DNA of 64,000 bases from Camelus ferus (taxonomy: Eukaryota). A program made the position numbers and the translations under genes. This document shows positions 6,964 through 63,835 of this stretch, piece after piece; position 1 is the stretch's first letter; the number at the start of each line of letters is the position of its first letter. Location of the stretch: positions 65,102,001 through 65,166,000 of the forward strand of contig NC_045696.1 of NCBI RefSeq assembly GCF_009834535.1. Direction: 5' to 3'. Below the pieces are notes generated by a model that saw nothing but the letters and a program-made list of their open reading frames with translations, was not told the DNA's origin and ran no database searches.

Positions 6964-7365
<402 letters not shown>

Positions 7366-13990: not shown

Positions 13991-14427
13991 AGGAAGGATA
14001 AAAGGGGAGGGAGAAAAAGAAAAGAAGGAAAGAAGGCAAGCCTGTTACCCAAGTCTGAGGAGGGTCTGAGGCCGTTTTCAAAGTGTGAGGAGGAAAGAGG
14101 TACCGAATAGTCACTTGGGAAGAATGGGAGAGGGAAGTGGCTAGAGGAATGAAGTAGGATTCCAGAAAGTGTTGAGTGCCCCCAGGAGGTTTGGGGGTCA
14201 AGATTTTGACTGAGACCAGGCAATGAAGTTTTGTTTTTCTCCAGACACATTAAACCATTAAACAGGAACCCTGGAGCTAATGACACCTGAATTTGAATGC
14301 TGATTCTACCCTGTGTCAGTGCACTACTTTGAACAAACTATCCTTTTTGTTCTTCAGTTTCCTTACTTGCCAGAGGGATCAATAAAAGTATCTACCTTTT
14401 AGGGTCATTTAAAATAATCTTAATATG

Positions 14428-14950
14428 TACAATAGCCAAGACATGGAAACAACCTAAATGTCTATTGACAGATGACTGGATAAGAAGATGTGGTATATAT
14501 ATTACAATGGAATATAACCCAGCCATAAAAAAGAATGAAATAGTGCCATTTGCAGCAACACAGATGGACCTAGAGATTATCATATTTAGTGAAGTAAATC
14601 AGAGAAAGACAAATATCATTTATATGTAGAATCTTAAAAAAAAAGATACAAATTTTATTTACAAACCAAAAATAGACTCATGAACAAACAAACTATGGTT
14701 ACCAAAAGGGAAGGGCAGGGGAGGGATAAATTAGGAATTTGGGATAAACAGATACACATTACTATATATAAAATAGATAAACAATAAGGACCTACTGTGT
14801 AGCACAGGGAACTATATTCAGTTTCTTGTAATAACATGTAATGGAAAAAAATCTGAAAATAGTATGTATATATGTATAACTGAATCACTTTGCTGTACAT
14901 CTGAAACTAACACTGTAAATCAACTACACTTCAATAAAAAATAAAAGAAA
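14428..14950 (+). mobile_element. L1 3' end (artiodactyl-type) with A-tail
   Basis: caatagccaagacatggaaacaacctaaatgtc...tatagcacagggaactatattca-like...caactacacttcaataaaaaataaaa. Confidence 0.85.
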
Positions 14951-17316
14951 ATATTAGTATATATAAAGTGCAGATATATAATAAGTGCTGAATTAACATT
15001 AGCTGTGGTTATGAGGACAGTGGCTACTGAGACAAACAATACTCATGCGATGGTACCTGGAACCTGGTTTATTATAGTTGTTTAATTTATAAATAACAGC
15101 AACTCCTGAGATTTCACTTTTTTAGACTTTTAAGAAAGGCATTATTTTAGTTTAAGTTTTCCAAGAGGAATTCATGACACTTAAAATAAAAGCGGTTATT
15201 GAATATTAAAAGTTGCAAACAGGGTCTCCGAGCTATTATAATAGCAAGAAATGCCTGCATATTCTGGTAACTGCATTTGCAACAGAGGTACCAGTGAAAA
15301 GAATGTAATAGAAAAATATTAAATGGAAAGCCTGCCCTGGAAAGACCCGTACCTAACCTTACAAAGAAAGGATGGATTTATTTTTAATAAGACTTCAAAG
15401 CCCAGTTATATATATTTGGTCTTTTTCTTTTCTAATGGCACAATCTTGCATTTAAAAATAAAGCAAAAAAAAGAAATAGAGCAAATACTGTATCTTATTA
15501 CAAAGTTGGTAGCTTATGGTCATGTTATGAGCAAGCGGAGCATTTTATTTGTGATAAAATAATATACAGGACTGCAGGGCTTTCTACAGAAATATGAGCC
15601 GTGCATCTCAGGCAGCTGTTAAAATGACAGCCTTCACTGTGTCAAGTCACTCAGTGACTAGTGTCCATCGTATGGGTGTGTTCTGTTCACATTAACGCGT
15701 TGAACTGGGGATGCCAAGTGAATGCTACGCCTTAAAGTAACACATAATATGGGCTATGTTATTAGGAACTTGCACTTGTCCTTGTGTCTGTGAATGAAGA
15801 AGAATATGCTCTCATCAAATCTCTACCTCACTTTTACTTTGAAAGCTGGGATAAATCCCTCTGCTTCAGTGTGCTATAGATCAAGAAGTGTCAAAACATG
15901 AATAAAAGGAAACATCCAGAAGCAGAAGTGGAGGAAGAAGAGGGGAGAGGGAGGGTGAAGGGGACAAAAAGGAAGAAATTGAAACATATATCAGAATAGA
16001 GGGAAAACAGAAAACTGATTTGAAGAAAGAGTACTAACAAATCATACAGAAATACTGCTCTGTTCAGAGCATGATTTCCTTTGACCATTTATCCAAAACT
16101 ATTATGGTATCGCACATGTTAGAGGAGCAATAGTATTTATTTAAAAAATATCCTGTGGGTGAAAAAAGAGCAAGTTTTTATTTTTTAATACTCTAAAGAG
16201 GAAAGAGCATAAGAATGATCAGGGCAACCCAGAAGAGCCAGATGAAAAAGTAACGTTGTTGATCATGAGGGTATGGCATCATCAAGACACTGAACATTCT
16301 TGAAATCTGGATATTGAAACTTTCTTGGAAAAAACAGTGTAAGATTAAATCGGAAAGAAAGAGAAATCAGTTCCATATCAACAGCTGGCCATTAAATCAC
16401 GCCCCCTGAAAACGATGCCTGTATCACAAGCACAGCCCACAAGGTCCTGAATGAGACAGTTAGATAGTATCATCCCAAATTGCAGTCCGAGGATTTGTTT
16501 CCAGTTGTTGAATCTGAGTTTCTGTGAAACAGTTCTGGGGAGCTGGGAGGACACAAAAGATAGGACATTGGATTTTTTTGTCTGTTTTTTTCACTTTATT
16601 CTCAATCTGGAAATTACTCCTCATCGAAATAACTAGATTGTCAACTTTGCTCTTATAACTGTAATGGGCCAGAATGCATAAAACAGAGTTCTTGGGAAGG
16701 AAATACTAAACCACAAAGAGATTTTTTTTTAATTCTTAAGCCTAGAATAATAAATCTATTTTCTAATGAAATGATAGCTTATTGTAACAGAAAGTGGTGG
16801 AAAAGCCCCTCTGTAAATATCATTTTAGTTCTTTGAACTACTGCAAATCGAGAGACTGGGGTTCTTTGCAAGTGCTAATAAGGAACTGATTATTAGAAAG
16901 AAAAAAAACTTAATCTTGCATGGAATAGGAATAATTTGAGAAACACAGTTTTGGTGCTACGGAATTTATGTAACTATTGAAGATCAGAATCTGGACAGTT
17001 CCCTAGAAATGTTTCTTAAAGGTTTTTCAAAATTGCTTAATGGTATATGATTGGAAATTAATACCAGAACTCCAAATTCTAGTAGTGGCAGCTGTAAAAA
17101 ATGCAATTAATTTTTACTGTACATTAAAGTATATAGGATTCTCATATGTGGGATTAGTAATTCTTGTTGTTTGTTTAGTCTTCTGAAGTTGTTAAATTAA
17201 GCTCCCCACAAAAGGATAGCCCTTCTCAACATGTTAGTTAGCTTAACCAAGGGAGCTTAACCACCTTTCAATTGCAGTCAAAATAATGATACTTGAAATA
17301 TGTTAGATATTGACTA

Positions 17317-23601: not shown

Positions 23602-23742
<141 letters not shown>

Positions 23743-34109: not shown

Positions 34110-36670
34110 CCTGAAAATCCACGTCTTTTGTAGGTATATTTTGAACATTTGAAAATAACATAATTATTGATATATTTGGATTTGGGTCAACTGTTGTATT
34201 ACTTGCTCCCTGTTTTTTCCCTCTGCCAGTTCCCTCCACTTTGCATTTTTCTGATTTCACTTTTCTGACTTCTTTTGGATTATTTGGTGGTTTCTCTAGG
34301 GCTTACAATATACACATTTTAACTCTTTACAGTCTACTTAGAATATTAATTTTATCACTTTGGGTGGAATGGAGAAAACGTACCACCATATAGGTCCCTT
34401 TATATTATGATCACCTATACATATTGGAATCCCTATCAGACAATGTTAATTTCTGCTTTCAACTCACAAACATTTTTAAAAAACTCAAGAACAGAATTAT
34501 TAAGTATATTTACCCAAATGTTTGCCATTTTGTTGTTTTCTTCATTTTTCATGTTTTAAGCTTCCTTGTGCTATTATTTCCCTTGAGTCTGAACTTCCTT
34601 TAACAATGCATTTAGAGCAGACCTTCATCTGAAAGTGTTTTTTATTTTGCCTGCATTCCTGAAGCATACGTCCCTTGGGAATAGCATTCTGGGTTGACAG
34701 TTCCTTTCTTTCTTCCCTTTAAAACTGCAACGCCAAGTCTTTCTGGCCTCTACGGTTGTTCTTCTAGTGATAACACATCATTTTTCTCTGGGTGCTTTCA
34801 GAATTTTTTCTTTCTCTTAAATTTTCAACAATTTGATTATGATCTGGAAGTGGATTTGTTTGTGTTTATCCTGTTTGGAATTCACTGAGCTTCTCGTATC
34901 TACAGGTACAGTTCTTTTGTCAAATTTGGGACATTTTCAGCCATTATTTCTTCAAATACTCTTCCCTGTGCTGCACTTTTTCTCTTCTCCTTCTGAGGCT
35001 CCGATGACATAAATGCTGGATTTTTTTGTTACTCTCCCACAGATCTCTAAGTCTCTTTTCACTTTCCCAATCTTTTTTTTTTTTTTTCTCTCTCTAATGT
35101 TCAGATTGAATCACTTTTGTTGATTTATCCTCAAGCTCATTGACTGCTTCCTCTGTCACCTCTCTTCTACTACCGAGCTGGTCAATGGAGGTTTTGTTTT
35201 TGGCTATTGTGTTTATAGTTCTAAAATTTCCATTTGGTTTTTGTTTTTAATCTTCTATTTATTTGGTACCTTTTCTATTTTAGCTTTTGTTTCAAGTCTC
35301 AGATAATTCCAATATTTTGTCATCTCACCATTTGTGTCTTGATTGCCTTTCCCCACACAAGTTGAGATTTTCCTGGTAGTTTATATGCCAAGTAACCTTT
35401 TAAATTATATATTGGAGATTTTGAATATTATATTATGAGATTCTGCATCTATTTTTAATCCTATGGAGAATATTGACATTTTAATTTTTTTTAAGCATTT
35501 CAGTTAAAAAAACTTTTAATTGAAGTATAGTCAGTTTACAACGTGTCAACAACATAATGTTTCAGTCATATTATACATACATATACTCATTTTCATATTC
35601 TTTTTCACTATAGGATATTGAATATAGCTCCCTGTGCTATACAGAGGAAACTTGTTGTTTACCTATTTTATATATAGTAGTTAATTAATATTTACAAATC
35701 TTGAACTTCCAATTTATCCCTTTCCACCTCATTCCCCCTAGTAACCGTAAGTTTGTTTACTATTGACATTTTAATTTTTGTAGTCAGTCAAACTGATTAG
35801 ATTCAGACCTTAAGGTTCCAACCAGCCTCCTACATTCCTGGTTCCAAAACAGTGAACTTTTCAAAGCATTCACATGCTATTTGGATCTGTCCAGTGTATA
35901 TGCCATCTAGTGGCCAGTCTTGGACATGGACAGTGATGTGTCTGTTTAGTTCTCAAAGTCTCTTGTTCGCTAAATAGTTATCAGATCCACGTGTGCACAG
36001 TTTGGGAATGAGTCCAATGCTTATAAACAATTATTTGGGGTTGATTTCCTGAATCCCTTCCTCTCCATTAACCTCCCCACACTTCCTGGTTCTTTGGGGG
36101 TCTTCTAGTTCACTTTTCATTTTAGAAAGCTAGGATTTTAGTCATCTTGTTCTGCAGTGCACTTCTGAAGTGTGCCCACCTCTCCAGTTAAACAATGGAA
36201 GGACACATAAGACAAAAAAACCAAACCAAAACAAAAAACACAATGGTTGGTCCCACCTTCTTGGAACTATAACTCGTCTGATGAAGGAAGAGGAAGTCTC
36301 TCCTGCTCGAGCTTTGGCTCCTGTGGGCTCCTTACACCAGGGGCCAGACCACGGGGGCACAGGAGAGAGGACTGCAGCAGGTGTTCCCACACTCTCTCGG
36401 AATAGTGTGAGTTCCTGCTCCTTGAGCGGTACTATAGGGCTTCTCCTGAACTCTGTCTACTCCTTTATGCCCACTTCAGTGTTGGTTGAGGGAAACTGGA
36501 GGAAAAATGGGTGAAGTCACCAGTGATTCATCATTAAATTGGAACCCTCTTCCCCAACTTGCCCGCTGTTTTTCAGAGTCCTTACAGAGCTGTTCTGTGA
36601 ATCCTGTCCACGTTTACTCAGTGCAAAACACAAAATAACTGGTACTTACTCCATCATATCCAGACTAGAC
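34110..36670 (-). mobile_element. Old, deleted L1 (ORF2 start through ORF1/5' region)
   Basis: T-rich antisense L1 phrases (tttgtcaaatttgggacattttcagccattatttcttcaaata; atagcattctgggttgacag). Confidence 0.6.
35490..35760 (-). mobile_element. Younger L1 3'-end fragment nested in the old L1
   Basis: ttaattgaagtatagtcagtttacaa...ccctgtgctatacag. Flanked by the 19-bp direct repeat tattgacattttaattttt (35471-35489 and 35761-35779). Confidence 0.85.
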
Positions 36671-38326: not shown

Positions 38327-38754
38327 CAGCATTGTCCAACAGATAAATTAGACTTGTATATGTAATTTTAAATTTCCTAGTAGCTACATTAAAAAGATAA
38401 AAAGAAATAGGTGAAATTAATTTTTATAATACTATATATAACCCAATATATCTAAAACATTATCCTCTCAACATAGAGTCAACATAAAAATTAACAAGAT
38501 ATTTACATTTTTATACTAAGGCTTTGCAATCTGGTGTATATTTTATACTTCAGCACATCTCAGTTCAGACCAGCTACATTAAGAATGCTCAGTAGCCCCA
38601 TGTGTAATTTGAACTCAAAAAGCCTCTGATTTTTTTTTTTTCTGAGTCAGCTTGACAAAGCTAGAACTACATTTTCTAGGATTCACTTCCTGTAAGCTTC
38701 CAAGTCAAAGCTGACCAAAGTCAAAGATAGTAGGTTATCTTATTAGAAGCACAG
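38327..38754 (+). mobile_element. MER33/MER3-like hAT-Charlie element interrupted by a 121-bp insertion
   Basis: Starts cagcattgtccaac and runs to cagaccagctacatt...gctcagtagccccatgtgt. It resumes after 38726 as tagtaggttatcttattagaagcacag, similar to the family's right terminus. Confidence 0.7.
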
Positions 38755-42332: not shown

Positions 42333-42459
42333 TCTCCTGACTTTAGAAAGTAGATTACTTCCAAAGTATTTTAGAATCAAATCTCTCTGGAACACACATT
42401 CGATTCACTTGACGACTTTGATACACTAATGCTTCAAAGGAATTTGAACTCAGAAAGCC

Positions 42460-43038
42460 TGTGATTTTTTTTTTTTTCTGAGTCAACTTGACAAAGCTAG
42501 AACTACATTTTCTAGGATTCATTTCCTGTAAGCTTCCAAGTCAAAGCTGACCAAAGTCAAAGTTTCACAAGATGTGGGAGGTAGGAGTGAAGCAGGAGTC
42601 ACTTCACTCTGAAGGTCTTTGCTGTTGGATGGACCTTGAAGTGTTTGCTGGTGGGTGTCAGTCAGTGTGTCCTCATGACCCCATGCTTTTTGTCCAGTTC
42701 TTTCAGACTGCTGGTGCTGCTGACCAGCTGCAACCTTAGACTCACCATGAGAAACAGAAGCAAAATCATTTCAGAGTCTTTCCCATCATCTTCTTGTCGT
42801 GGTCACACACCAACAGATGGATTTGACTGGCTTCCCAGATTCCCATGCAAGCCCTAACATTTCCATCACTGTCAGTGCTTCAGGAGAGCTGATCCCTAAC
42901 TTTATTCTGATCCTCTAGCATCTTCATTCTAGACCTTAATTTCTAGCTTATCCCACAGTTCGGATCCAGCTGCTATAATAAAACCTTTATACCATAGTTC
43001 TCCTAGTGTTTCTACTTTCTGGACTGAACTTTGATACA
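42460..43038 (+). mobile_element. ERVL-type solo LTR (LTR33/LTR16-like)
   Basis: tgtg...gtcaacttgacaaagctagaactacattt at the start, and aataaaacc...ggactgaactttgataca at the end (TG...CA). Confidence 0.6.
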
Positions 43039-46000
43039 TTACTCAAAAGTAATTTCATTCTAGCTTTTAGCAAAGAAAAGGCAATAGTTTTTTTTGTTTT
43101 TTTCTGAGAACTTTCCTTTCAAACTAATGGAGTCTCTCTTTGACTCATGATCTTCTTGACAGTTTTGGCTTAAGCGAAACTTATTCAATTCCATGAAAAC
43201 TTACTTCATCTATGCAGCATAGAAAAAAAAGAAAGACTATTACATACATATGCTATGAAATGTCCTGTAAATTTTCTTCACTAACTAGCTTTGAAAAAAA
43301 AAAAGTAGACATTAATATATATAAGTGCTTAGAATTAGTCTTTAGTCCTCAAAATAATTTTCCAGCTCATATCCAAATCTGTTTATTAAAGGGGATATGC
43401 ATACATAATGTGTGTGTAATTTAAATGCATATCTAAAGTAGATAATTTTAAAACTAACTTTGAACCAATTTTAAAAATCAGTTTCCTCTATGAATTACAT
43501 AAATGTTTAGCCCAGTGGAAGCTCTGATGGGACATCTTTATGAATAAAGATGTGTAAGACTGGTCTTCATCATGATATAAAGTTTGACCTACATAGTTAC
43601 GACTTGTGAGTTAAGAAGAAAATAACATAAAAAGTGAAAATCCACAAAATAAAGAAGACAGGAAGGCAGGAAGGCAGGAAGGCAGGTTGTTACTTTACTT
43701 TCATTTTCATTTGTGTCACTTCAGTGAAATAGGAGAATTGTAATAATAATCCCACTACCAATAATAGTAATAGCTATCACATGGATAAAATGATCTAGAG
43801 GCGAAGAAAGTGTAAGGAAGTGGTAAAATCCTAAACAAATGACCATCATGATTATGACGCTTTCCCTTTCCTTTTTTTCTCTCTTTTTCTTTCCCATACT
43901 CATAGGGGTTTCTTGCTGATATGAGCTAACCTGATAAGATAACACATAAAACCGCCTGTGGGATTTGCTCTGTTCCCAGGCAACAGATTGCTTACTTTAA
44001 ATATGGTCTTTCAGAAGCCATGATTCATTGCTGCTGTCTAAGTCTGAAGTGACATTTAACAATGGAGACCTGAGGGAGCTGGACCTTTCAGGGTAGTCGA
44101 ACCAATTCAATTCAGCAAATAGTGACTAAATGCCCACGTTGCACTTTCACATCCATTTGCTCATTGGGAAGTGCGAGCCAGGCCCTCTGCTCAGAACAGA
44201 CTACCGGCAATACAGCCCATGCAAGCCTTCCTCTCGTGGAGGTCCCAGCCCTGCAGGGATGACAACTACAGCAAAAATTATTATAATATGTAATAGAGTA
44301 TATCCAACGTGCTATAATAAAAATGTAAACTACATATTGGAAAAGGAGGGGATAGTTGAGTAAAGAAAAACAGCATTCTGGACAGAAGAAACGGCCTGAG
44401 GAAAGACACAGGGCTATGAAAATCCAAAATATGATCAAGGTTTCTTGAAGTGTTATCAGGTGTTGTTTGACGGTGAATATCTTAGGACTATCGATTACAA
44501 TGGCCTTTTCCAAAATTCGGTGATTTAATAACATGCACATCTTTGCTCTATCCAAACATTCTGCCAAATATACCAACATACCATTATTTGCTTTTTATTT
44601 AAAACTCCACATTGATTTTTATTTTTTAGCTAAAATTGTTCTAAGCATTTGAGCTTGATATACTAGTGACATTTTTTTCCTAATGGACTTTAAATATTTT
44701 TAAAACTATTAACATTAAAAATGTCTATCGATCTAAAATAATCTTGAACATCCACAGTGGTATGTTACTGTACATTGAGAAACCTCGTGGTGGAAGATGA
44801 GGCAGGAACAGGAAGGCAGTGTATCGATGGCTTTGGATTCCATAGTATGGACTGGGCTTCACGTTTAGGTACTAAAGAGTAGACATGTTTACAATCATCA
44901 GAACTGTATCTTGAGAACTTAATTCTAGGAGCGCTGTTGTTAAGAGGTGAAAAAGACAGATTGGATAAAACAAGGTCTGAACTTCACTTCGGTTTCCCTC
45001 TTCAAGAGCTGACTCAAATGTTACCTTTTTATGAAACTTGTCCTGACTCCTCCAGGAGCTTAGTGACTTGTATGTGAGACTTCCTTATTAAGCATTCTAT
45101 CTATAGTAACCTCTGCTGCATTGAATCTGTTTCTTTACATATATCTCCTGCTCCTCCATGAATATTCTGAAGATTTGTGTTTTTCATAACTGAGTCTCTA
45201 AAGGCCCAGAGTGTGTGAAAGCTACAGAGGGGTAAAATTTTGTAGAATGAAAGAAATAAAGAGATTAAATAAAAGCTGTTTAATAATTCAAAAATTACTT
45301 AATAGGGATCTAAACTATGAGGGAATCAATTCCAGAAATTCTTATAATTAATGTGATTGGAGGCCAGATTTAGTCAAAGACAGTTCTGAAATTTCAGTCT
45401 GGTTGAAGATCATGACAGGAAACGTATCTCAAATACAAATCCATCCACTGGGAAATGGTGGTCTCTGTGTAGCTTCACTCCTCCAAGATAAAACTAAAAT
45501 ATTTTTATACATTTGTGAGATCAATTACATACTTATGTTGACTGAAATAAAATCACACAATGTGAGCGCTGGAGTTAAGTTTTATTTGGGGTCTGTGCAC
45601 AGAGCTTAATGTATATGGCAGCTGATTGGATGAATGTATGCTGGTTGCCTGCTGAAATACAGCCGTGTTGTAGTGGGGGAACCAACATACTCTTCCCTAG
45701 CTCTGGCTCTGTCCCTAGTGAGTTTGTATCCATAACTAAACGCTCTATCTCAGCAAATTTCAATAAGAGAATGAGTCCAATAGCACCTCCTTGCCTTCTT
45801 GGCGTGTTCCAACGGCACAGTGATTGTAGAAATGGTTTTGGAATTTCTTTCACTCTTGTATCCACAATAATCCATTAAGGATAAAACAAATCAGAGTGTG
45901 AGTTTTAGAAAACATAAACCAAATTATGTTACATTCCTGTTGAAAATTTTCAGTGATTTCCTCTCTTAGGTTAAAATTCGACCAGTTTATCAGGACCATA

Positions 46001-46079: not shown

Positions 46080-46615
46080 TGCCAATGAAAAATTGGCACT
46101 TGCCATCTGCCTCTACAAGGTCTGAATCACACTGGCACTTGCCATCTACCTCTGCTGAATTAAATCACAAGCCCCTGCAGCCGCTGACCTCCAACACTCC
46201 CTGAAAGGTGTTCAGGGTGGAGATCAGGAATGAAGCGCTCTGTGCTCTGGGAAAAACTGGCAGAACAGGCCTTCAGATAGATAGATATTTTTAGGAGAAG
46301 ATTTTATAAGCCCAAATTCTTGCATCTCATATCTAGAAAAGCACTAACGGTGACATCTGTTCCTAGCAACTAGCAGCAAGCCTCTGTCTAAATGTGTGCT
46401 TGACTACATGTGCAGTCATATATAATATGACTGAAATCATATATAATATTGACCTTCACTGAAATCATATATAATATTGACCTTCCCCACTATCTCTTCG
46501 GAGCAGTTGCTCAGAGCTATCTGAAGTGCTGCCTCCCTGGCTACAGTCCTCAGTTGGCCCCCAAATAAAACTTAACTCACAGTTCTCACATTGTGTGATT
46601 TTATTTCAGTCAAAG
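46080..46615 (+). mobile_element. ERV1-type solo LTR inserted into an L2 3' end
   Basis: ctgaaaggtgttcagggtggagatcagg...ccccaaataaaacttaactcacag...ttcagtc. Flanked by taag at 46076-46079 and 46616-46619. L2 tail phrases lie on both sides. Confidence 0.7.
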
Positions 46616-46811
46616 TAAGTATGTAATGAGTATATGAATGCATGATAGAATAAGTAAATGAAGGAGTTAACTGTGACTTCCCAGCTAGTTAGTGGTGGAA
46701 TCAGGGCTGGAAGGTAGGTGTCTTGATTCCAAAGCTCTTTATTTCCATTGTCCCCAAATTGTTCTAACTCATGAAATTCTATTCTTTGACCACCTATGGA
46801 AAAGGCATTAA

Positions 46812-46876
46812 TTTTTTTGTATATATATATAAAATTTTAATTGAAGTATAGTCAGTTTACAATATTGTGTCAATTG
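46812..46876 (-). mobile_element. Extremely 5'-truncated L1 tail (65 bp)
   Basis: ttaattgaagtatagtcagtttacaatattgtgtcaat, with the TSD aaaggcattaa at 46801-46811 and 46877-46887. Confidence 0.8.
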
Positions 46877-50714: not shown

Positions 50715-50867
50715 GGGAGGAAGGTATAGCTCAAGTGGCAGAGCACATGCTTAGCATGCATGAAGTCCTAGGTTCAATCCCCAGTATCTCCATTAAAAAA
50801 AAAACAAAACAAATAATAAATTAGTAAATAGACCTAATGATCTCCCCAACAAAAATAAATTTTAAAA
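50715..50867 (+). mobile_element. tRNA-derived SINE (camelid vic-1-like)
   Basis: tagctcaagtggcagagc (A box), ggttcaatccc (B box) and an A-rich tail. A degenerate TSD aa(g/t)atcaca(t/g)atgta is at 50698-50712 and 50868-50882. Confidence 0.88.
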
Positions 50868-51599
50868 AATATCACAGATGTAAGGTTATGTGATGGCATG
50901 GATGCATCAAAAAAGCATAAATCACTTCCAGTTGGAAAGAAAATTTTATATCATTTATTTCTAAATTTGTCATTTAACAAATGGGGAACAAGAGGGTCAG
51001 AAAGGGCAAGAAAATCCACCATGAAGATAGTTCTCCAAAGCCGGACCTCTAGACAGTTGGCCACAATTGCTTCGAAACTCATGTAATCGGCTTCCCAGCT
51101 GGCTACTTAGGTGCCTTTTTACAAGTAACTGGTGAACTCTTGCTTCCACGGCTGTGACACAGTGAAGAAAAATCAACAGAGCCTCTAAAGGTGAAACAGT
51201 GATTTGGGAAACTGAAGAAAAACGCAGAAGAATACAGTCTAGAATTTCCTGACTCCAAAAATGTACGCTCAATTTAACAGGAAATTAACCATGATTCCCA
51301 GAAAAATCCCTTTTATCCCACTAGGATAACCTATAGTCATACTAGGATCAGATCTCTTTTTTAACTTAGAGCGTTATTCTATAGCGTTAGCAAAGAAAAA
51401 TATTGTAGCTTATGTAACCATGGGGATAAAATGCAATTGAATTCAAATCGAGATGTATTCTAATATCCCCCTATGTTTAAAGCATTATTCTAAGCAGGTT
51501 TGGGAAAGTAGATATGAAAATAATATCTAATATCTGTATTCATAGTATACTTTATAATAAAACAAATCTAATATACATAGTATACTTTATAAAATGTCT

Positions 51600-54508: not shown

Positions 54509-54525
54509 AAAAATGATCCAGTTTT
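54509..54525 (+). repeat. L1 target-site duplication, 5' copy (aaaaatgatccagtttt)
   Basis: An identical 17-mer occurs at 61705-61721. The GT|AAAAA junction resembles the L1 endonuclease TT|AAAA site. Confidence 0.9.
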
Positions 54526-54536
54526 GAGAGACGGAG

Positions 54537-55700
54537 AAGATGGCAGAGTAGAAGGGCGCTCGCAGGTCACCCTCTCCCACAAATACACCAAGACCCACAT
54601 CTACAGACCCACTCAGCCAACCAGAGCACCTGCGGAACTCCTGACAGCACATCACCCTCTTCAAAAGACAAAGACGCCAAAAATCTGGTAGGAGAAAAGG
54701 AGAAAAGAAGGAACAAAAGGCAAAGCAGCGCGGGACGGGTCCCGCGGGGAGGGAGCGGCAAAGGAGGACTGGCGCTCGCTCGCTGGGTCTCCCCTCTCCA
54801 ACTGAGAGGCCAGCGGGACGGAGGGGGAGCCTCCGAGGCTCGGATCTGTACAGAGCAGCCCTTGACTGACAGAACTAAGCTAAACCCGCACAGAGCGTCC
54901 CCCCGACACCCAGCCTGAGACGCGGGCCGGCAGCGGCGGGCAGGGCCAGGCTGCACAAGCCGGGCAGAGGACGGGGGCGGCTGCACGGAAGCAGCCCCGG
55001 GGGAATGCAAGGGGCTGCGCGCCGTGGCTGTGGGTGCACAGGGCAGAACAACCTGGGCCCTCCATAAAACAGCGAGGTTGATGTGCTCTCGGGGGAAGGG
55101 TGCACACCCCCATCTCTGAGTGTTCGGGGGAAGAGAGGCGGGGCTCAGGCACAGCCGCCATATCCTCCGCGCTTAGCACTCAGGCGGGGGCAGGGGCAAA
55201 ACCTGCATCCGCACCGAAGGGCTTAGCAGCCTCAAAGGCCAGACTGAGACTGGCCTGCAACCCGGGGCAGATAGGATCCTTCCATCCTGGTCCCTCAGAG
55301 AACTTGCTCCACAAAGACAAACAAGGAGCTGGGTTTTGGCTCGGAGCAGGGACAGGGCTATCCCTCGGTCTTCCCCGAGCCCACCTGCGGAGCACCGACC
55401 AGGGCAGAGCGTCGACCAGGGCAGAGTGCACAGCCGCACAGAGAGCGGAGCTACAGATGGCGCAGGTAGAGGGAGAGCGCCCCCCCCCCCCCCCGGCCTT
55501 TCGGGCAGGAACACAGCCCCTGACCGAGGTGCTGGGAGGGGGCACGACCCGCCCTCCTACCTGGCCAGTCTGCAACATCTGACTGCGGCATCCGGAGGGG
55601 CAGCGACCCGACCGCGATCTGCTTGCGGACAGGTGCTGGGAGCAGCACAGAAGAGGGCCGCCAACGGAGGGCCTCTGAAAACAGCAAGCTGAGCTTCCAA
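54537..55700 (+). promoter_or_regulatory. L1 internal promoter / CpG island with YY1-like site
   Basis: AAGATGGC at 54537-54544 near the element start. The region is CpG-dense and GC-rich against an AT-rich background. Confidence 0.75.
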
Positions 55701-56163
55701 AACAGGACGAAGACAGAAAGACTTCACATTAAAAGCACACAGACTCCAGGAGAACACCGACAACCCCCCCCCCTTTTTTTAAATCTGTTTTTACCTGTTC
55801 TATTTTCTATTACTCTCTTAATTTTTACTTCTTAATTCATTTCTATTTCTCTCGGGTTTTGATGTCCTGCTATTGATTAGACACAGGTTTCAAATACATC
55901 TATTCATCCCCCCCAATTTTTTGTAAAGGTTTTAAAAGGTCGTCTCAACCCGATTAATACTCTGCTTCAACTCACTCTTCTATTATTCATTATACACTGT
56001 TTTCAAACCCTCTTTCTCCCTTCTTTTAAAGTTCTTTCTCTCTCTCTCTTATTTTTTTTTCTTTTTTCCCTAAGTTCTATTCCTAAATAGGCATCAGATA
56101 GATAAAATCCTTAAGGACCAAAATAAACAACTGATACTCCATACACCACAGTGCCAAAGAGGT

Positions 56164-57066
56164 ATGAGCAAGATGAAGAAGCAGAAAAACCTTTCCCAAA
56201 TAAAAGAACAAGAGAAATCCCCTGAAAGAAAGATCAATGAAATAGACATCGATAGCCTACTAGATCAAGATTTCAAAAAAGGAGTGATCGAATTGCTGAA
56301 GGAATTAAAAGAGATAGTGTTTAGAGATATAAAATATGTCAAAAATGAAATTGAAGCTATAAAGAAGAGCCAAGTAGAATGGGTAAACTCACTGACAGAG
56401 ATGAGGAATGATCTAATAGCTGTGCAAAGCCGACTAGATAATGCAGAGGAACGAATTAGTGATCTAGAAGACAGGGCAATAGAAAGCACCCATTCAGAAG
56501 AACTACAAGAGAAGCAAATAAAAAATAATGAAAATAGCATAAGGGACCTATGGGATAATATAAAGCATCCCAATCTTCACATAATAAGGGTCCCAGAAGG
56601 AGAAGAAAGATCAAAGGGGATTGAAAAGGTTTTTGAAGAAATCATGACTGAAAACTTCCCAAACTTAAAGAAGGAATCAGATATCCAAGTACAGGAAGCT
56701 CAGAGGGTCCCAAACAGGAAGAACCCAAATAGACCCACACCAAGACATATCATAATCAAGATGGCCAGAGTCAAGGATAAAGAAATGATTCTAAAGGCAG
56801 CAAGAGAAAAGCAAAGAGTAAGTTACAAGGGAACCCCCATAAGGCTCTCAGCTGATTTCTCTACACAAACACTACAGGCCAGAAGGGAGTGGCAAGATAT
56901 ATTCAAAGCCCTGAATGAAAAAAAGATGCAGCCTAGGATCCTTTATCCAGCAAGGCTATCCTTGAGGATAGAAGGAGAAATAAAGAATTTCACAGACAAA
57001 AAAAAGCAGCAGGAGTTTAGCAACACTAAACCCATGCTAAAAGAAATATTGAAAGGGCTATTCTAA
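56164..57066 (+). CDS. L1 ORF1p (RNA-binding chaperone), intact, 300 aa
   Basis: Uninterrupted ATG-to-TAA ORF with a coiled-coil region and typical ORF1p motifs (LWDNIK, ENFPNL, PTPRHIIIKM, IRLSADFS, ARREW, YPARLS). Confidence 0.95.
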   Translation: MSKMKKQKNLSQIKEQEKSPERKINEIDIDSLLDQDFKKGVIELLKELKEIVFRDIKYVKNEIEAIKKSQVEWVNSLTEMRNDLIAVQSRLDNAEERISDLEDRAIESTHSEELQEKQIKNNENSIRDLWDNIKHPNLHIIRVPEGEERSKGIEKVFEEIMTENFPNLKKESDIQVQEAQRVPNRKNPNRPTPRHIIIKMARVKDKEMILKAAREKQRVSYKGTPIRLSADFSTQTLQARREWQDIFKALNEKKMQPRILYPARLSLRIEGEIKNFTDKKKQQEFSNTKPMLKEILKGLF

Positions 57067-57471: not shown

Positions 57472-60400
57472 ATGGCAATAAACACACATCTATCATTAAT
57501 TACTGTAAATGTTAATGGACTAAATGCTCCAGTCAAAAGACACAGAGTGGCAGACTGGATAATAAAGCAAGAACCTTCAATATGCTGCATACAAGAGACC
57601 CACTTTAGGGAGAAGGACACATATAGATTTAGAGTGAAAGGATGGAAAAGGATATTCCATGCAAATGGAAAAGCCAAAAAAGCAGGTGTTGCAGTACTGA
57701 TTTCAGACAAAATAAACTTTAAAACAAAGGCCATAAAGAAAGGTAAAGAAGGACATTTTATAATGATTAAAGGAGTGATATTAAAGATGAGGATATTACA
57801 CTCGTTAATATATATGCACCCAATATAGGAGCACCTAAGTACATACAAGAATTACTAACAGAGATAAAGGGGGATATTGATGGGAATACAATCATAGTTG
57901 GAGATTTTAACACTGCATTAACATCACTAGACAGATCTTCCAGACAGAAAATAAACAAGGCAACAGAGAAATTAAATACTACAATAGAAAAACTAGATTT
58001 GGTGGATATTTTCAGAGCATTACACCCCCCAAAAATAGGATATACATTCTTTTCAAGTGCACATGGAACATTTTCCAGGATCGATCATGTACTTGGGCAC
58101 AAAAGAAACCTCAACAATTTTAAGAAGATAGAAATTATCTCAAGCATCTTTACTGACCACAATGCCATGAAACTGGAAATCAACAACAGAGAAACAAAGG
58201 AGAAAAAAAGGAAAGCATGGAGATTAAACAATATGTTATTGAAAAAACAATGGATCAATGAGGAAATCAAAGCTGAAATTAAAAAATACCTTGAGACAAA
58301 TGATAATGAAAGCACAACCACTCAAAACCTATGGGACACAGCAAAGGCAGTGCTAAGAGGGAAGTTTATAGCGATACAGGCCTTCCTCAAAAAAGAAGAA
58401 CAATCTCAAATAAACAATTTAACCCACCACCTGAATGAATTAGAAAAAGAAGAACAAAAAGCCCCAAAAAGCAGCAGAAGGAAGGAAATAATAAAGATCA
58501 GAGAGGAATTAAATACAATAGAGATTAACAAGACCATAGAAAAAATCAACCAAACCAAAAGCTGGTTTTTTGAAAAAGTAAATAAAATCGACAGACCTCT
58601 GGCCAAACTCACAAAGAAGAAAAAAGAGAGAGCACAAATTAGCAAAATAAGAAAGGAAAATGGAGAAATTACAACAAACAAAATAGAAATACAGAATATC
58701 AAACGAGAATATTATGAAAAACTATATGGAACCAAACTGGATAACCTAGAGGAGATGGACAAGTTTCTGGAAACATACTGTCCACCAAAACTGAATCAAG
58801 AAGAATCTGAACACTTGAACATTCTGATCACTAGAAAGGAAATAGAAATAGCAATTAAAAACCTCCCTACAAATAAAAGTCCAGGACCGGACGGCTTCAC
58901 CGGGGAATTCTACCAAACATACAAAGAAGAACTCATACCAGTCCTTCTCAAACTCTTCCAGATGATTGAAAAGGAGGGGATACTCCCAAACTCATTCTAT
59001 GAAGCCACCATCACCCTGATACCAAAACCAGGCAAAGACACTACAAAAAAAGAGAATTATAGGCCAATATCACTGATGAACATAGACGCCAAAATCCTCA
59101 CCAAAATTTTAGCAAATAGAATCCAACAACACATAAAAAAGATTATATACATCATGACCAAGTGGGGTTCATCCCAGGGACACAAGGCTGGTTCAACATA
59201 TGCAAATCAATCAGTGTAATACATCACATCAACAAGAGAAAGGACAAAAACCACATGATCATCTCAATCGATGCAGAAAAAGCATTTGATAAAATTCAAC
59301 ACCCATTTATGATAAAAACTCTCACCAAAGTGGGTATAGAGGGAACATATCTCAACATAATAAAAGCTATATATGACAAACCTACAGCCAGCATAGTACT
59401 CAATGGTGAAAAACTCAAAAGCTTCCCACTAAAATCTGGGACAAGACAAGGATGCCCACTATCACCACTCCTATTCAACATAGTCCTGGAAGTCCTAGCC
59501 ACAGCAGTCAGGCAAGAGAAAGAAATAAAAGGGATCCAAATTGGAAAAGAAGAGGTAAAAGTGTCATTATATGCTGATGACATGTTACTATATATAGAAA
59601 ACCCTAAAAGGTCCACACAAAAGCTACTAGAGCTGATTGAAGAATTCAGCAAGGTAGCAGGTTACAAAATTAACGTTCAAAAATCAGTTGCATTTCTTTA
59701 CACTAATGATAAATCAACAGAAGAAGAAAGTAAAGAAACAATCCCCTTTAAAATAGCACCCAAAGTAATAAAATATCTGGGAATAAATCTAACCAAGGAG
59801 GTGAAAGAATTATACACAGGAAACTATAAACCACTGATGAAGGAAATTAAAGAAGACTTTAAAAAATGGAAAGATATTCCCATGCTCTTGGATTGGAAGA
59901 ATCAATATTGTTAAAATGGTCACACTGCCCAAGGCAATCTACAGATTTAATGCAATCCCTATCCAATTACCCAGGACATATTTCACAGAACTAGAAAAAA
60001 TCATAATAAAATTCATATGGAACCATCAAAGACCTAGAATTGCCAAAGCATTACTGAAGAGAAAGAAAGAGGCTGGAGGAATAACTCTCCCAGACTTCAG
60101 ACAATACTATAGAGCTACAGTCATCAAGACAGCATGGTATTGGTACCAAAACAGACATATAGACCAATGGAACAGAATAGAGAGCCCAGAAACGAACCCA
60201 CAAACTTTTGGTCAACTCATCTTTGACAAAGGAGGCAAGAATATACAATGGAATAAAGACAGTCTCTTCAGCAAATGGTGTTGGGAAAACTGGACAGCAG
60301 CATGTAAAACAATGAAGCTAGAACACTCCCTTACACCATATACAAAAATCAACTCAAAATGGATTAAAGACTTAAACATAAGACAAGATACAATAAACCT

Positions 60401-61273
60401 CCTAGAGGAAAACATAGGCAAAACATTATCTGACATACATTTAAAAAATTTTCTCCTAGAAGAAATAAAAGCAAGAATAAACAAATGGGACCTAATGAAA
60501 CTTACAAGCTTCTGCACAGCAAAGGAAACCAGAAATAAAACAAGAAGAAAACCTATGGAATGGGAGAAAATTTTGCAAGTGAAACTGACAAAGGCTTGAT
60601 CTCCAGAATATATAAGCAGCTCATATGACTCAATAAGAAAAAAATAAACAACCCAATCCAAAAATGGGCAGAAGACCTAAACAAGCAATTCTCCAAGGAA
60701 GACATACAAATGATCAAAAAGCACATGAAAAAATGCTCAATATCACTAATTATCAGAGAAATGCAAATCAAAACTACAATGAGGTATCACCTCACACCAG
60801 TCAGAATGGCCGTCATTCAAAAATCCACAAATGACAAATGCTGGAGAGGCTGTGAAGAAAGGGGAACCCTCCTACACTGCTGGTGGGAATGCAGTTTGGT
60901 GCAGCCACTATGGAAAACAGTGTGGAGATTCCTCAAAAGACTAGGAATAGACTTACCATATGACCTAGGAATCCCACTCCTGGGCTTGTATCCAGAAGGA
61001 AATCTACTTCAGGATGACACCTGCACCCCAATGTTCATAGCAGCACTATTTACAATAGCCAAAACATGGAAACAGCCTAAATGTCCATCAACAGGTGACT
61101 GGATAAAGAAGAGGTGGTATATTTATACAATGGAATACTACTCAGCCATAAAAACCGACAACATAATGCCATTTGCAGCAACATGGATGCTCCTGGAGAA
61201 TGTCATTCTAAGTGAAGTAAGCCAGAAAGAGAAAGAAAAATACCATATGAGATTGCTCATATGTGGAATCTAA
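57472..61273 (+). pseudogene. L1 ORF2 (APE endonuclease, reverse transcriptase, Cys-rich domain), disabled
   Basis: Motifs: NVNGLN, CCIQETH, GDFN and TDHN (endonuclease); QGCPLSP and YADD (RT); [18 protein letters not shown]. Frameshifts occur near 57780, 59146, 59880 and 60572, and there is an in-frame TGA at 60626-60628. Confidence 0.95.
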
Positions 61274-61704
61274 AAAACAAAAACAGAAACAAACAAACAA
61301 ACAAAAACAAAGCGTAAATAAAGGACAGAAATAGACTCACAGACAGAGAATACAGACTTGTGGTTATCAGGGGGGTGGAGGATGGGAAGGGATAGACTGG
61401 GATTTCAAAATTGTAGAATAGACTACACTGTACAGCACAGGGAAATATACACAAAATGTTATGATAACTTCATAGAGAAAAAAATGTGACAATGAGTGTG
61501 TATATGTCCATGAATAACTGAAAAATTGTGCTGAACACTGGAATTTGACACAGCATTGTAAAATGATTATAAATCAATAAAAAATGTTAAAAAAAAAGCA
61601 TGTGATAAAAAATTCAAACACATGCAAAAGTAGAGATATTTTAAAATTAACTCCCACATTTTTCTTTTTAATTGAAGGCAAAAAAATTAAATAAACATGG
61701 CAAA

Positions 61705-61721
61705 AAAAATGATCCAGTTTT
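61705..61721 (+). repeat. L1 target-site duplication, 3' copy
   Basis: Identical to 54509-54525 and overlaps the second A-run (61702-61709). Confidence 0.9.
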
Positions 61722-63145
61722 CTCTCTGTAGTTCTGTGTACATATTGTATTCTGCTAGAGATAAAGTCACCTTTCCTCCCTATTCTGAAGGAATTCACTG
61801 TGGAATTTATGTCCTCTTGAGCTCCTGGAAATCCCCACATTAGAAAGGTACCTGGATACCCTCAGTTTCTTGGCTCCTGAAGACTTTAACTGAAGTGGAG
61901 CAACTAGAAGTTCTCGCTAGAGGTGCACAGAAGAGGCAGCTTTAATCAAGGAGAGTGACTTGGAGCACAGGCAGATATAATCCACTTTCCCTGTGTCAGT
62001 CTTTCTTAGGAGTGTCGCTCAGAAGTTCGGCTCTGCTTACGTCATTTGAGGGGTTGAAGACACACACTCACTTCCTCAGCATGGATGCTGTACAAACTAC
62101 CAAAATGAAGATTTTGGTTTTACTTTCCATTTTTCTGGTGTCTAAAATTCCAGAATTCAAGCCAGAGAGCAGAGATGTGACAGTTGCTTCACTTAATTAC
62201 AGAAGCTGATCATGTAGCCTACTTTCTGTCTGTTTCCTAGTCCTTTTCATGAACTGGCAGATAATCTCATAATTATGCAGACAGTTCTGGTACTGCACAT
62301 ACAACTGGCACACCGTGCTTCAGCAGTTCCACAGTCATTTATTATCAAGATTAGAGATTGCCAGGAAAATCACATTTTAGCTAATTTTACTTTGCGGATT
62401 CAGTAGGGAGGGGAGGAGGACACAGAACAAGGCAAATTATATTTTTAAAACTCTTGTGCTTTCCATTATTGAGGTAATAGTGAGGAATGTATTGCATGAG
62501 GAAGGAATATAGCATTTAAACATTTTTTAGCAAAAACATACATAATTAAGCCTGAAGTTTACTTATGGTTGGATAAAAGGCAAGTGGCTTTTTTCCAGCT
62601 AGTCTCCATGAGACTACACAATGGTGTGCACAGTGTAATATAATGGAACATGGGTACTAATATTAATATAACAAAGTAAGTGTGATCCTATTAAAACTTG
62701 GTTTTAACATTGCTATGGTAAAAACACAATGTCTTCTACTGTCTTCTTCAGCCAAGCACCAAATGAGTTTGCTCTCAGATTTCAAATTCCTCCACCCAGG
62801 AAGGGCTGAAAGCTGAGTAAATGTAATTAAATATCTAAATATTTTGGCGGGACATAACACTGCTGAGATATTTCTTAGAGCAAAACTGGTAGTGAGATGC
62901 AGGTGGAAGAGCCCTAAACCTGGACCTAAATTCGCTGGGTTCAAGTTTTGGATCCCATAGTTAAGAACTGCAACGTTAGCCAAGAATTAATTTCTATGAA
63001 TATTTGGTTCATTTTCTTGAACACAGGGATATTAATTCGGTCTTACAGTGCTACATTAATACACTAGATCAAAACCACTTTGCCAGCTGAAATGCACTGC
63101 ATGATTGTGCGTTATTACAGCACATAAGTAGTATGTGTGCGTAGG

Positions 63146-63835
63146 TTGATCAAGAAAAATTGCACCGGATACTGGTTAAAATGGCAAGAAAGACTTTATT
63201 TGAGACTATTGAAGTAGGGGTCAAGGTTATGGCAATGGGGGAGAGAGACTGAACTCAATTTCACTGAAACAAAAGGCAAGAGGATTTTTAAATGCTGGGG
63301 TGCATTAATGGAAAAGTACCGGAGGACTTCAGAGGGGAGATTGGTCAATGTGATTAGGCTATCTGTGTTTGCTAATTGCTGCTTATTGAAGTTAGGTTTC
63401 TATCTTCCCCACAGAGACTGGCAGACCAAGGTCCTAGCTTTCTTGAAGATTATATCTAGAAGGGAAGAGAGCAGAAAATTTCCATCTTAAAGAGGCAGAG
63501 AAAGACATTACAATGGTAAGTTTTCAAAAGGCACTAACCACTGCATTAAAATAGATAAACAACAGGATCCTACTGTAGAGCACAGGGAACTACATTCAAT
63601 ATCTTATAATAGCTTATGATGAAAAAGGATATGAAAAGGAATATATATATATAAATCTGAATCAGTATGCTGTAAAGCAGAAATTAACCCAACATTGTAA
63701 ACTGACTATACTTCAACTAAAAAAAAAAACAAACTAAATGCTCTAAGAAAAAGGAGGTTAGGGGTCTATAGTCAGGAAGAAGCTTGCCTAAAGTTTAGTC
63801 ACACTGAGGGGAACTTGAAGGATGCCTTGGTCAAT
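63146..63835 (-). mobile_element. ERV1-type solo LTR containing a nested L1 tail
   Basis: gttgatcaagaaaaa...gactttatt...ccttggtcaa. Interrupted by the L1 tail at ~63535-63730. Confidence 0.6.
63535..63730 (+). mobile_element. L1 3'-end fragment with A-tail
   Basis: aaaatagataaacaacaggatcctactgtagagcacagggaactac...gtaaactgactatacttcaactaaaaaaaaaaa. Confidence 0.85.

Follow-up and report, generated by a model that had tools for sequence, protein, structure and literature searches.

The locus analysed here raises the question of why the target-site duplication (TSD) of an L1 element does not close at the end of that element. The element lies on the forward strand of a 64,000-nucleotide stretch of Camelus ferus DNA, the whole of which is called the window below, and its 17-bp TSD encloses the full-length L1 (54526-61597) together with 104 bases that are not L1. 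The original prediction had interpreted these bases as a 3' transduction, the downstream flank of a source L1 carried along by read-through of its poly(A) signal. The features on which the argument depends were as follows.

54509-54525, + strand: 5' copy of the TSD, beginning with five A after ...TTGT and adjoining the L1 start at 54526
54526-56163, + strand: L1 5' UTR, 1.64 kb, GC 0.56, CpG observed/expected 0.59 versus 0.19-0.28 in the flanks
56164-57066, + strand: ORF1, open, 300 amino acids, with PF02994, PF17489 and PF17490
57067-57471, + strand: spacer between the ORFs, 405 bp
57472-61273, + strand: ORF2, broken, with endonuclease and reverse transcriptase domains present
61274-61588, + strand: L1 3' UTR, in which a separate AATAAA signal lies at 61576-61581
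61589-61597, + strand: first A-tail, 9 A, the usual end of the copies of the subfamily
61598-61703, + strand: probable transduced segment, 104 bases (61598-61701) and two donor-matched A
61686-61695, + strand: overlapping poly(A) hexamers, ATTAAA at 61686-61691 and AATAAA at 61690-61695
61702-61709, + strand: second A-run, 8 A, of which five are in the TSD, two are donor-matched and about one is unaccounted for
61705-61721, + strand: 3' copy of the TSD, an exact 17-bp match

The L1 was classed as full-length on the basis of its 5' UTR, the ORF1 domains, the endonuclease and reverse transcriptase domains of ORF2, the 3' UTR and the A-tail. Its start at 54526 was placed by the contact with the duplication and by an L1 start motif. 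Of the 300 residues of the ORF1 product, 7 were not the same as in P0001, the nearest database copy, and a cluster look-up for three close ORF1 proteins gave no names. The best named relatives of the ORF2 C-terminal piece were ORF2 pieces of Camelus dromedarius (85-93% identity), with pig lower at 78-79%, which identifies the host as a camelid. Retrotransposition competence demands that both ORFs be intact, and ORF2 was interrupted by four frameshifts (near 57780, 59150, 59880 and 60575) as well as by a single in-frame stop close to 60627. Being broken five times in ORF2, this copy of L1 is unable to retrotranspose on its own. A 14-bp direct repeat with copies 17 bp apart was also observed inside the 5' UTR (55396-55426).

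The outer boundaries of the insertion were analysed by exact matching. As predicted, the 17-mer was flush with the 5' end of the L1 and its partner lay 107 bp past the A-tail. These two copies (54509-54525 and 61705-61721) were the only exact ones in the window, no third match was found there at up to two mismatches, and none of the 100 shuffled controls contained two matches. The 5' copy was also the longest suffix of the upstream flank recurring in 61560-62600, and an exact repeat within 500 bp would arise by chance with a probability of about 2e-7 at the local composition. The target site was of the endonuclease type: the bottom strand reads TTTTT/AC (GT/AAAAA on the top strand), one base from the L1 endonuclease consensus TTTT/AA given in the available part of PMC7980453. 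Nested independent insertions were considered as well and rejected, since the L1 alone was not enclosed by any second duplication. The place of insertion is intergenic; the stop codon of the preceding gene, FGF12, is about 31 kb away, and the last two coding exons of this gene were located at 7126-7324 and 23624-23742 (+ strand; best PDB matches FHF1/FGF12, E 5e-42).

Public sequencing runs were searched with 61598-62600, and 19 of 23 runs, from 7 studies and two organisms, contained 0.89-0.93 of the sampled words; the shortfall was partly due to a one-base gap near 61970 that was common to X1, X9 and X14. Four of the 23 runs were aligned to 61450-62600 at 88% likeness, namely the raw reads X23 and three contig sets, of which X1 came from organism A and X9 and X14 from organism B. 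One of these four could be the source of the window itself, and all results on individual pieces refer to the pieces and loose ends listed, among a larger set. The depth of X23 was recorded in only 8 of 30 bins, with none over 61645-62502, so that this run is uninformative on the unique locus itself. One window base near 61970-61972 was missing from all three contig runs, which may reflect an assembly error or a private variant, and X14 showed an additional substitution at 62154.

At the end of the L1 (61528-61566), the raw depth of X23 was 3645+3865 (about 7,500) versus 0.28+0.28 (0.56) just beyond it (61606-61644), a ratio of about 13,000. Among those listed, the loose ends clustered at 61594-61598 and consisted of A-runs followed by mixed sequence. 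This collapse of depth shows that the 104 bp between the A-tail and the TSD are not how copies of the subfamily normally end.

Within the last 148 letters of the L1, those at 61469, 61473 and 61553 differed from at least 86% of the raw reads, which suggests a private divergence of 1-2%. At the camel mutation rate of 2.5e-8 per five-year generation, as quoted in an accessible section of PMC8605555, this divergence would correspond, as a rough estimate, to an insertion about 2-4 million years old. In the 3' UTR the raw reads were split about 40:60 at 61496, 61498, 61500, 61508, 61513, 61533 and 61534, which suggests that two or more young L1 subfamilies are abundant in this genome.

The 104-base segment (61598-61701) was 25% GC. 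No second copy was found in the window, where self-BLAST gave only short A/T-rich matches (best 26 bp, E 0.005), and the segment was absent after the older L1-type 3' ends of the window in the six stretches read. Rfam gave no match at the segment. Exact 24-base scans of metagenome, prokaryotic and viral collections with the segment and the L1 3' UTR gave 0 matches, a result that is uninformative for a mammalian locus. Over its first 60 bases, the segment may resemble ancient L1M-type elements as read from their antisense end. The overlapping ATTAAA and AATAAA were present at 61686-61695 just as had been described, with spacings to the segment end of 10-12 nt for ATTAAA and only 6-8 nt for AATAAA. 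The former falls inside the 10-30 nt that usually separate a poly(A) signal from the end, according to the part of PMC13009371 available to us. A hexamer at such spacing occurred by chance at 4.7% of window positions and at 13% of AT-rich ones.

Several other repeats were recorded in the window. Older 5'-truncated L1-type 3' ends, which shared about 69-82% identity with the young L1, were located at 14424-14953 (+), 63547-63736 (+), 35510-35756 (-) and 46831-46875 (-), and the minus-strand one near 35490-35760 was flanked by a 19-bp direct repeat (35471, 35761). The stretch 50720-50870 (+) began with a tRNA-Ala(AGC)-like head (Rfam 49.6 bits; ARAGORN) and continued into an A-rich tail; it looks like a camelid tRNA-derived SINE, perhaps Vic-1. 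Further, a 122-bp direct duplication of 96% identity, with copies 3.8 kb apart (38606-38726 and 42441-42562), showed no obvious repeat hallmarks, and a 69-bp inverted repeat of 93% identity had arms about 1 kb apart (45524-45591 and 46559-46627), between which a 28-bp exact tandem duplication was present (46430-46485).

A second locus of the segment, for which a BLAST search had been proposed with the original prediction, was present in all three contig runs, where the same 793-bp contig carried the segment elsewhere. The last 110 letters of this contig (684-793) fitted 61594-61703 with two other letters and no gaps. The tag had been expected to identify the locus of the source L1 and any sibling insertions. 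The donor site was indeed found, but no sibling was demonstrated and no source L1 was seen there: in all three contig runs, the 683 letters that precede the donor segment gave no fit to the 3' end of this L1 at 88% likeness. These letters formed one unbroken run, and the other L1-tail contigs listed reached at most 90 letters into the L1 end. An old, diverged L1 or another repeat is possible upstream of the donor segment. Since the three sets are short-read contigs from three animals, their lack of a source L1 directly upstream is compatible with a rare, lost or heterozygous allele. The donor alignment without an adjoining L1 fitting at 88% corresponds to what has been termed 'parentless' in dogs.

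The contigs of the downstream flank started within the segment, at 61680 in X1, 61680 in X9 and 61674 in X14, and hence the filled 3' junction is present in all three contig runs and under both organism labels. The flank contig of X14 overlapped the donor contig, which ends at 61703, by exactly 30 letters, as would result from a 31-mer graph if donor and daughter diverged right after the segment. No differing donor letter was listed in 61600-61703, and the two differing letters probably lie at 61595-61599. If they do, a simple empty endonuclease site would not match cleanly at the junction, and this imperfection is the main loose end. The junction from L1 tail to segment was absent among the listed pieces of any run, probably because it was short or removed in assembly.

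The fit of the donor contig also affected the second A-run. The eight A were confirmed, but five of them belong to the TSD and, as the donor fit extends through 61703, two are donor-matched, which leaves about one added A. The run is thus weak evidence for an added poly(A) tail.

Beyond the listed pieces, a depth of about 1.5-2 single-copy units remained over 61645-61722, and X1 and X14, unlike X9, had a short piece extending to about 61735. A contig of an empty allele would end at about 61735, yet the flank contig was unsplit at 61705. The residual depth and this piece could represent siblings, an empty allele or chance fits of A/T-rich sequence. Another unexplained short piece was recorded at 62425-62463 in X14.

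Based on these data, we consider it probable that the segment arose by partnered 3' transduction through read-through, from a parent L1 that never became fixed or is absent from these animals; when all transduction readings are combined, transduction becomes highly probable. We propose that a parent L1 once lay just upstream of the donor segment on some chromosomes, and that RNA polymerase II ignored its AATAAA, continued through its encoded A-tail and transcribed about 104 nt of the flanking sequence. Cleavage of this transcript 10-12 nt after ATTAAA and its polyadenylation would have followed, by an established mechanism. A nick by ORF2p at the present site past FGF12 and priming near the start of the tail would have allowed target-primed reverse transcription of the whole 7.2-kb RNA, in agreement with the 17-bp duplication around the composite structure. 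The daughter presumably then spread, as its 3' junction occurs in all contig runs under both labels, and decayed over roughly 2-4 million years, while the parent allele may have been lost or become rare, leaving the donor site without the L1 that the contigs lack there.

This explanation is favoured by the single TSD around both parts, the endonuclease-type site, the non-consensus nature of the segment and its second locus, where no young L1 was seen alongside. Further support comes from the overlap of exactly 30 letters between donor and flank contigs, the usual spacing of ATTAAA, and the prevalence of parentless cases in dogs and of short tags in general. Counting against the parentless reading are the unseen parent L1, the two of 110 donor letters that differ, the addition of about one A only, the chance frequency of hexamers (4.7-13%), the unlisted junction of tail and segment, and the orthologous empty site, which was not seen.

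It was also considered that the transduction took place from a parent L1 that is still there but hidden, the 793-bp contig representing either an orphan or 'proxy' sibling insertion or, at a heterozygous donor site, the allele that lacks the L1, and the short links to the parent having been removed by the assembler. The 1.5-2 units of residual depth would fit such an arrangement, as would the flank contigs of X1 and X9, which begin only at 61680 and thereby imply that the graph branches once more at the A-run; the available portion of PMC13009371 describes proxy elements. However, the depth of the 793-bp contig was about single-copy in X1 (12.2 versus 11 for the flank) and X14 (8.1 versus 7.9) and was below the flank in X9 (12.1 versus 19.8), X14 had no branch in the A-run, and the chance short piece on AT-rich sequence elsewhere in X14 (62425-62463) means that the residual depth may be noise. 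A hidden parent was judged unlikely.

That no L1 was seen upstream of the donor segment in the three contig runs would also be expected if the two parts had been joined at the RNA level. Reverse transcription would then have started on a short, polyadenylated non-L1 RNA end from the donor locus and jumped to an L1 RNA at its poly(A), or both RNAs would have been ligated, before the full L1 was copied. The donor fit reaches the A-rich 61594-61597, which offers possible microhomology, and the accessible text of PMC13174262 documents L1 chimeras formed by template switching as well as by RNA ligation. In the U6 and mRNA chimeras presented in that text, however, the foreign RNA is 5' of L1, and this order is reversed here. 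Moreover, the parentless state is common in dogs, where it was once resolved as a dimorphic parent, and none of the 19 runs containing 61598-62600 was RNA, although the search was aimed at DNA. Such a chimera appears improbable.

Even less probable is a later patch of DNA repair, in which a break in the A-tail of an ordinary L1 was filled with 104 bp from the donor by means of A microhomology at both ends, as in a class 2 templated sequence insertion. Such patches are described in the part of PMC5110952 that was available, and A on both sides of the segment with almost no added tail would be consistent with one. No difference between segment and donor was listed despite the decayed body of the L1, and at 1-1.5% per branch the probability of zero differences is 0.04-0.13. 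This apparent identity is nevertheless weak evidence, because bubble removal by the assembler can mask differences. The segment begins exactly at the L1 tail, is in sense orientation and ends 10-12 nt past a poly(A) hexamer, none of which favours a patch, and a patch that happened to fall in one 12-base tail would be far less likely a priori than transduction.

The least credible reading, that the segment is part of the normal 3' end of the subfamily or belongs to the pre-insertion site, is open to argument only in that the empty site was not directly seen, and it is opposed by the heterogeneous loose ends, by the recurrence beyond the segment of the repeat that abuts the L1 5' end, by the separate locus of the segment and by the roughly 13,000-fold fall of depth at the tail, which refuted the normal-end part outright and with it the possibility, named beforehand as fatal to the original prediction, that the segment is the usual 3' UTR of the subfamily.

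Taken as a read-through transduction with a parent that did not persist, the single locus is of little weight, being a textbook by-product of L1 activity in an element that is now dead. It does provide an example from a camelid in which the donor site can be traced, and if the parent is truly gone, it is a record of an active L1 allele that never fixed. The presence or absence of the insertion could also be used as a marker among camelids. The locus would gain importance only if the donor had never held an L1: were the RNA chimera true, some 'parentless' transductions would never have had a parent, and counts of hidden active L1s based on tags would be inflated.

Partnered 3' transduction by L1 is said to have been described by Moran in 1999, by Goodier and Pickeral in 2000 and by Szak in 2003. 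Its mechanism is treated in PMC7980453, PMC13141329 and PMC13009371, so far as the accessible parts of these papers go, and in the latter, a long-read study of cancer, 248 of 349 tags were shorter than 100 bp. The camelid locus resembles such transductions in that the L1, the A-tail, a unique flank, a hexamer and an A-run are contained in one TSD at an endonuclease-type site, and in the presence of a second locus. It differs from the usual ones in its camelid host, in the very short added tail and in being an old, broken element rather than a recent polymorphism. No report of camelid L1 transductions was found by title or start of abstract, in a thin search that is no proof of absence, and the accessible part of a camel repeat survey mentioned transduction once, in generic terms.

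Two of the mechanisms weighed above have counterparts in the same literature. The locus is like the template-switch and ligation chimeras of PMC13174262 in that L1 and non-L1 sequence share one orientation and one duplication; unlike those chimeras, in which the available text places the U6 or mRNA partner 5' of L1, the foreign piece here is 3' of a full-length L1. With the class 2 templated insertions in the available part of PMC5110952 it shares a short copy of a distant locus, but it differs from them in lying inside an L1 duplication, right after the tail, and in ending past a poly(A) hexamer.

The closest likeness is to the canine transductions, in which the transduced sequence also maps to a site without an adjacent L1; only canine papers on 'parentless' transductions were found in our thin literature search. 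According to the available parts of the respective papers, 17 of 18 canine transductions were parentless (PMC7980453), only 3 of 27 canine donor sites were within 50 bp of an L1 (PMC13141329), and one parentless case was traced to a dimorphic intact parent (PMC13103737); the supplements of the canine studies may describe similar donor junctions. In dogs the insertions are young and dimorphic, and their parents may still be segregating, whereas the camelid daughter is decayed and occurs under two organism labels, so that its parent is more likely to have been lost long ago. With the transduction reading well supported, the camelid locus is probably a further example of the known class of parentless 3' transductions.
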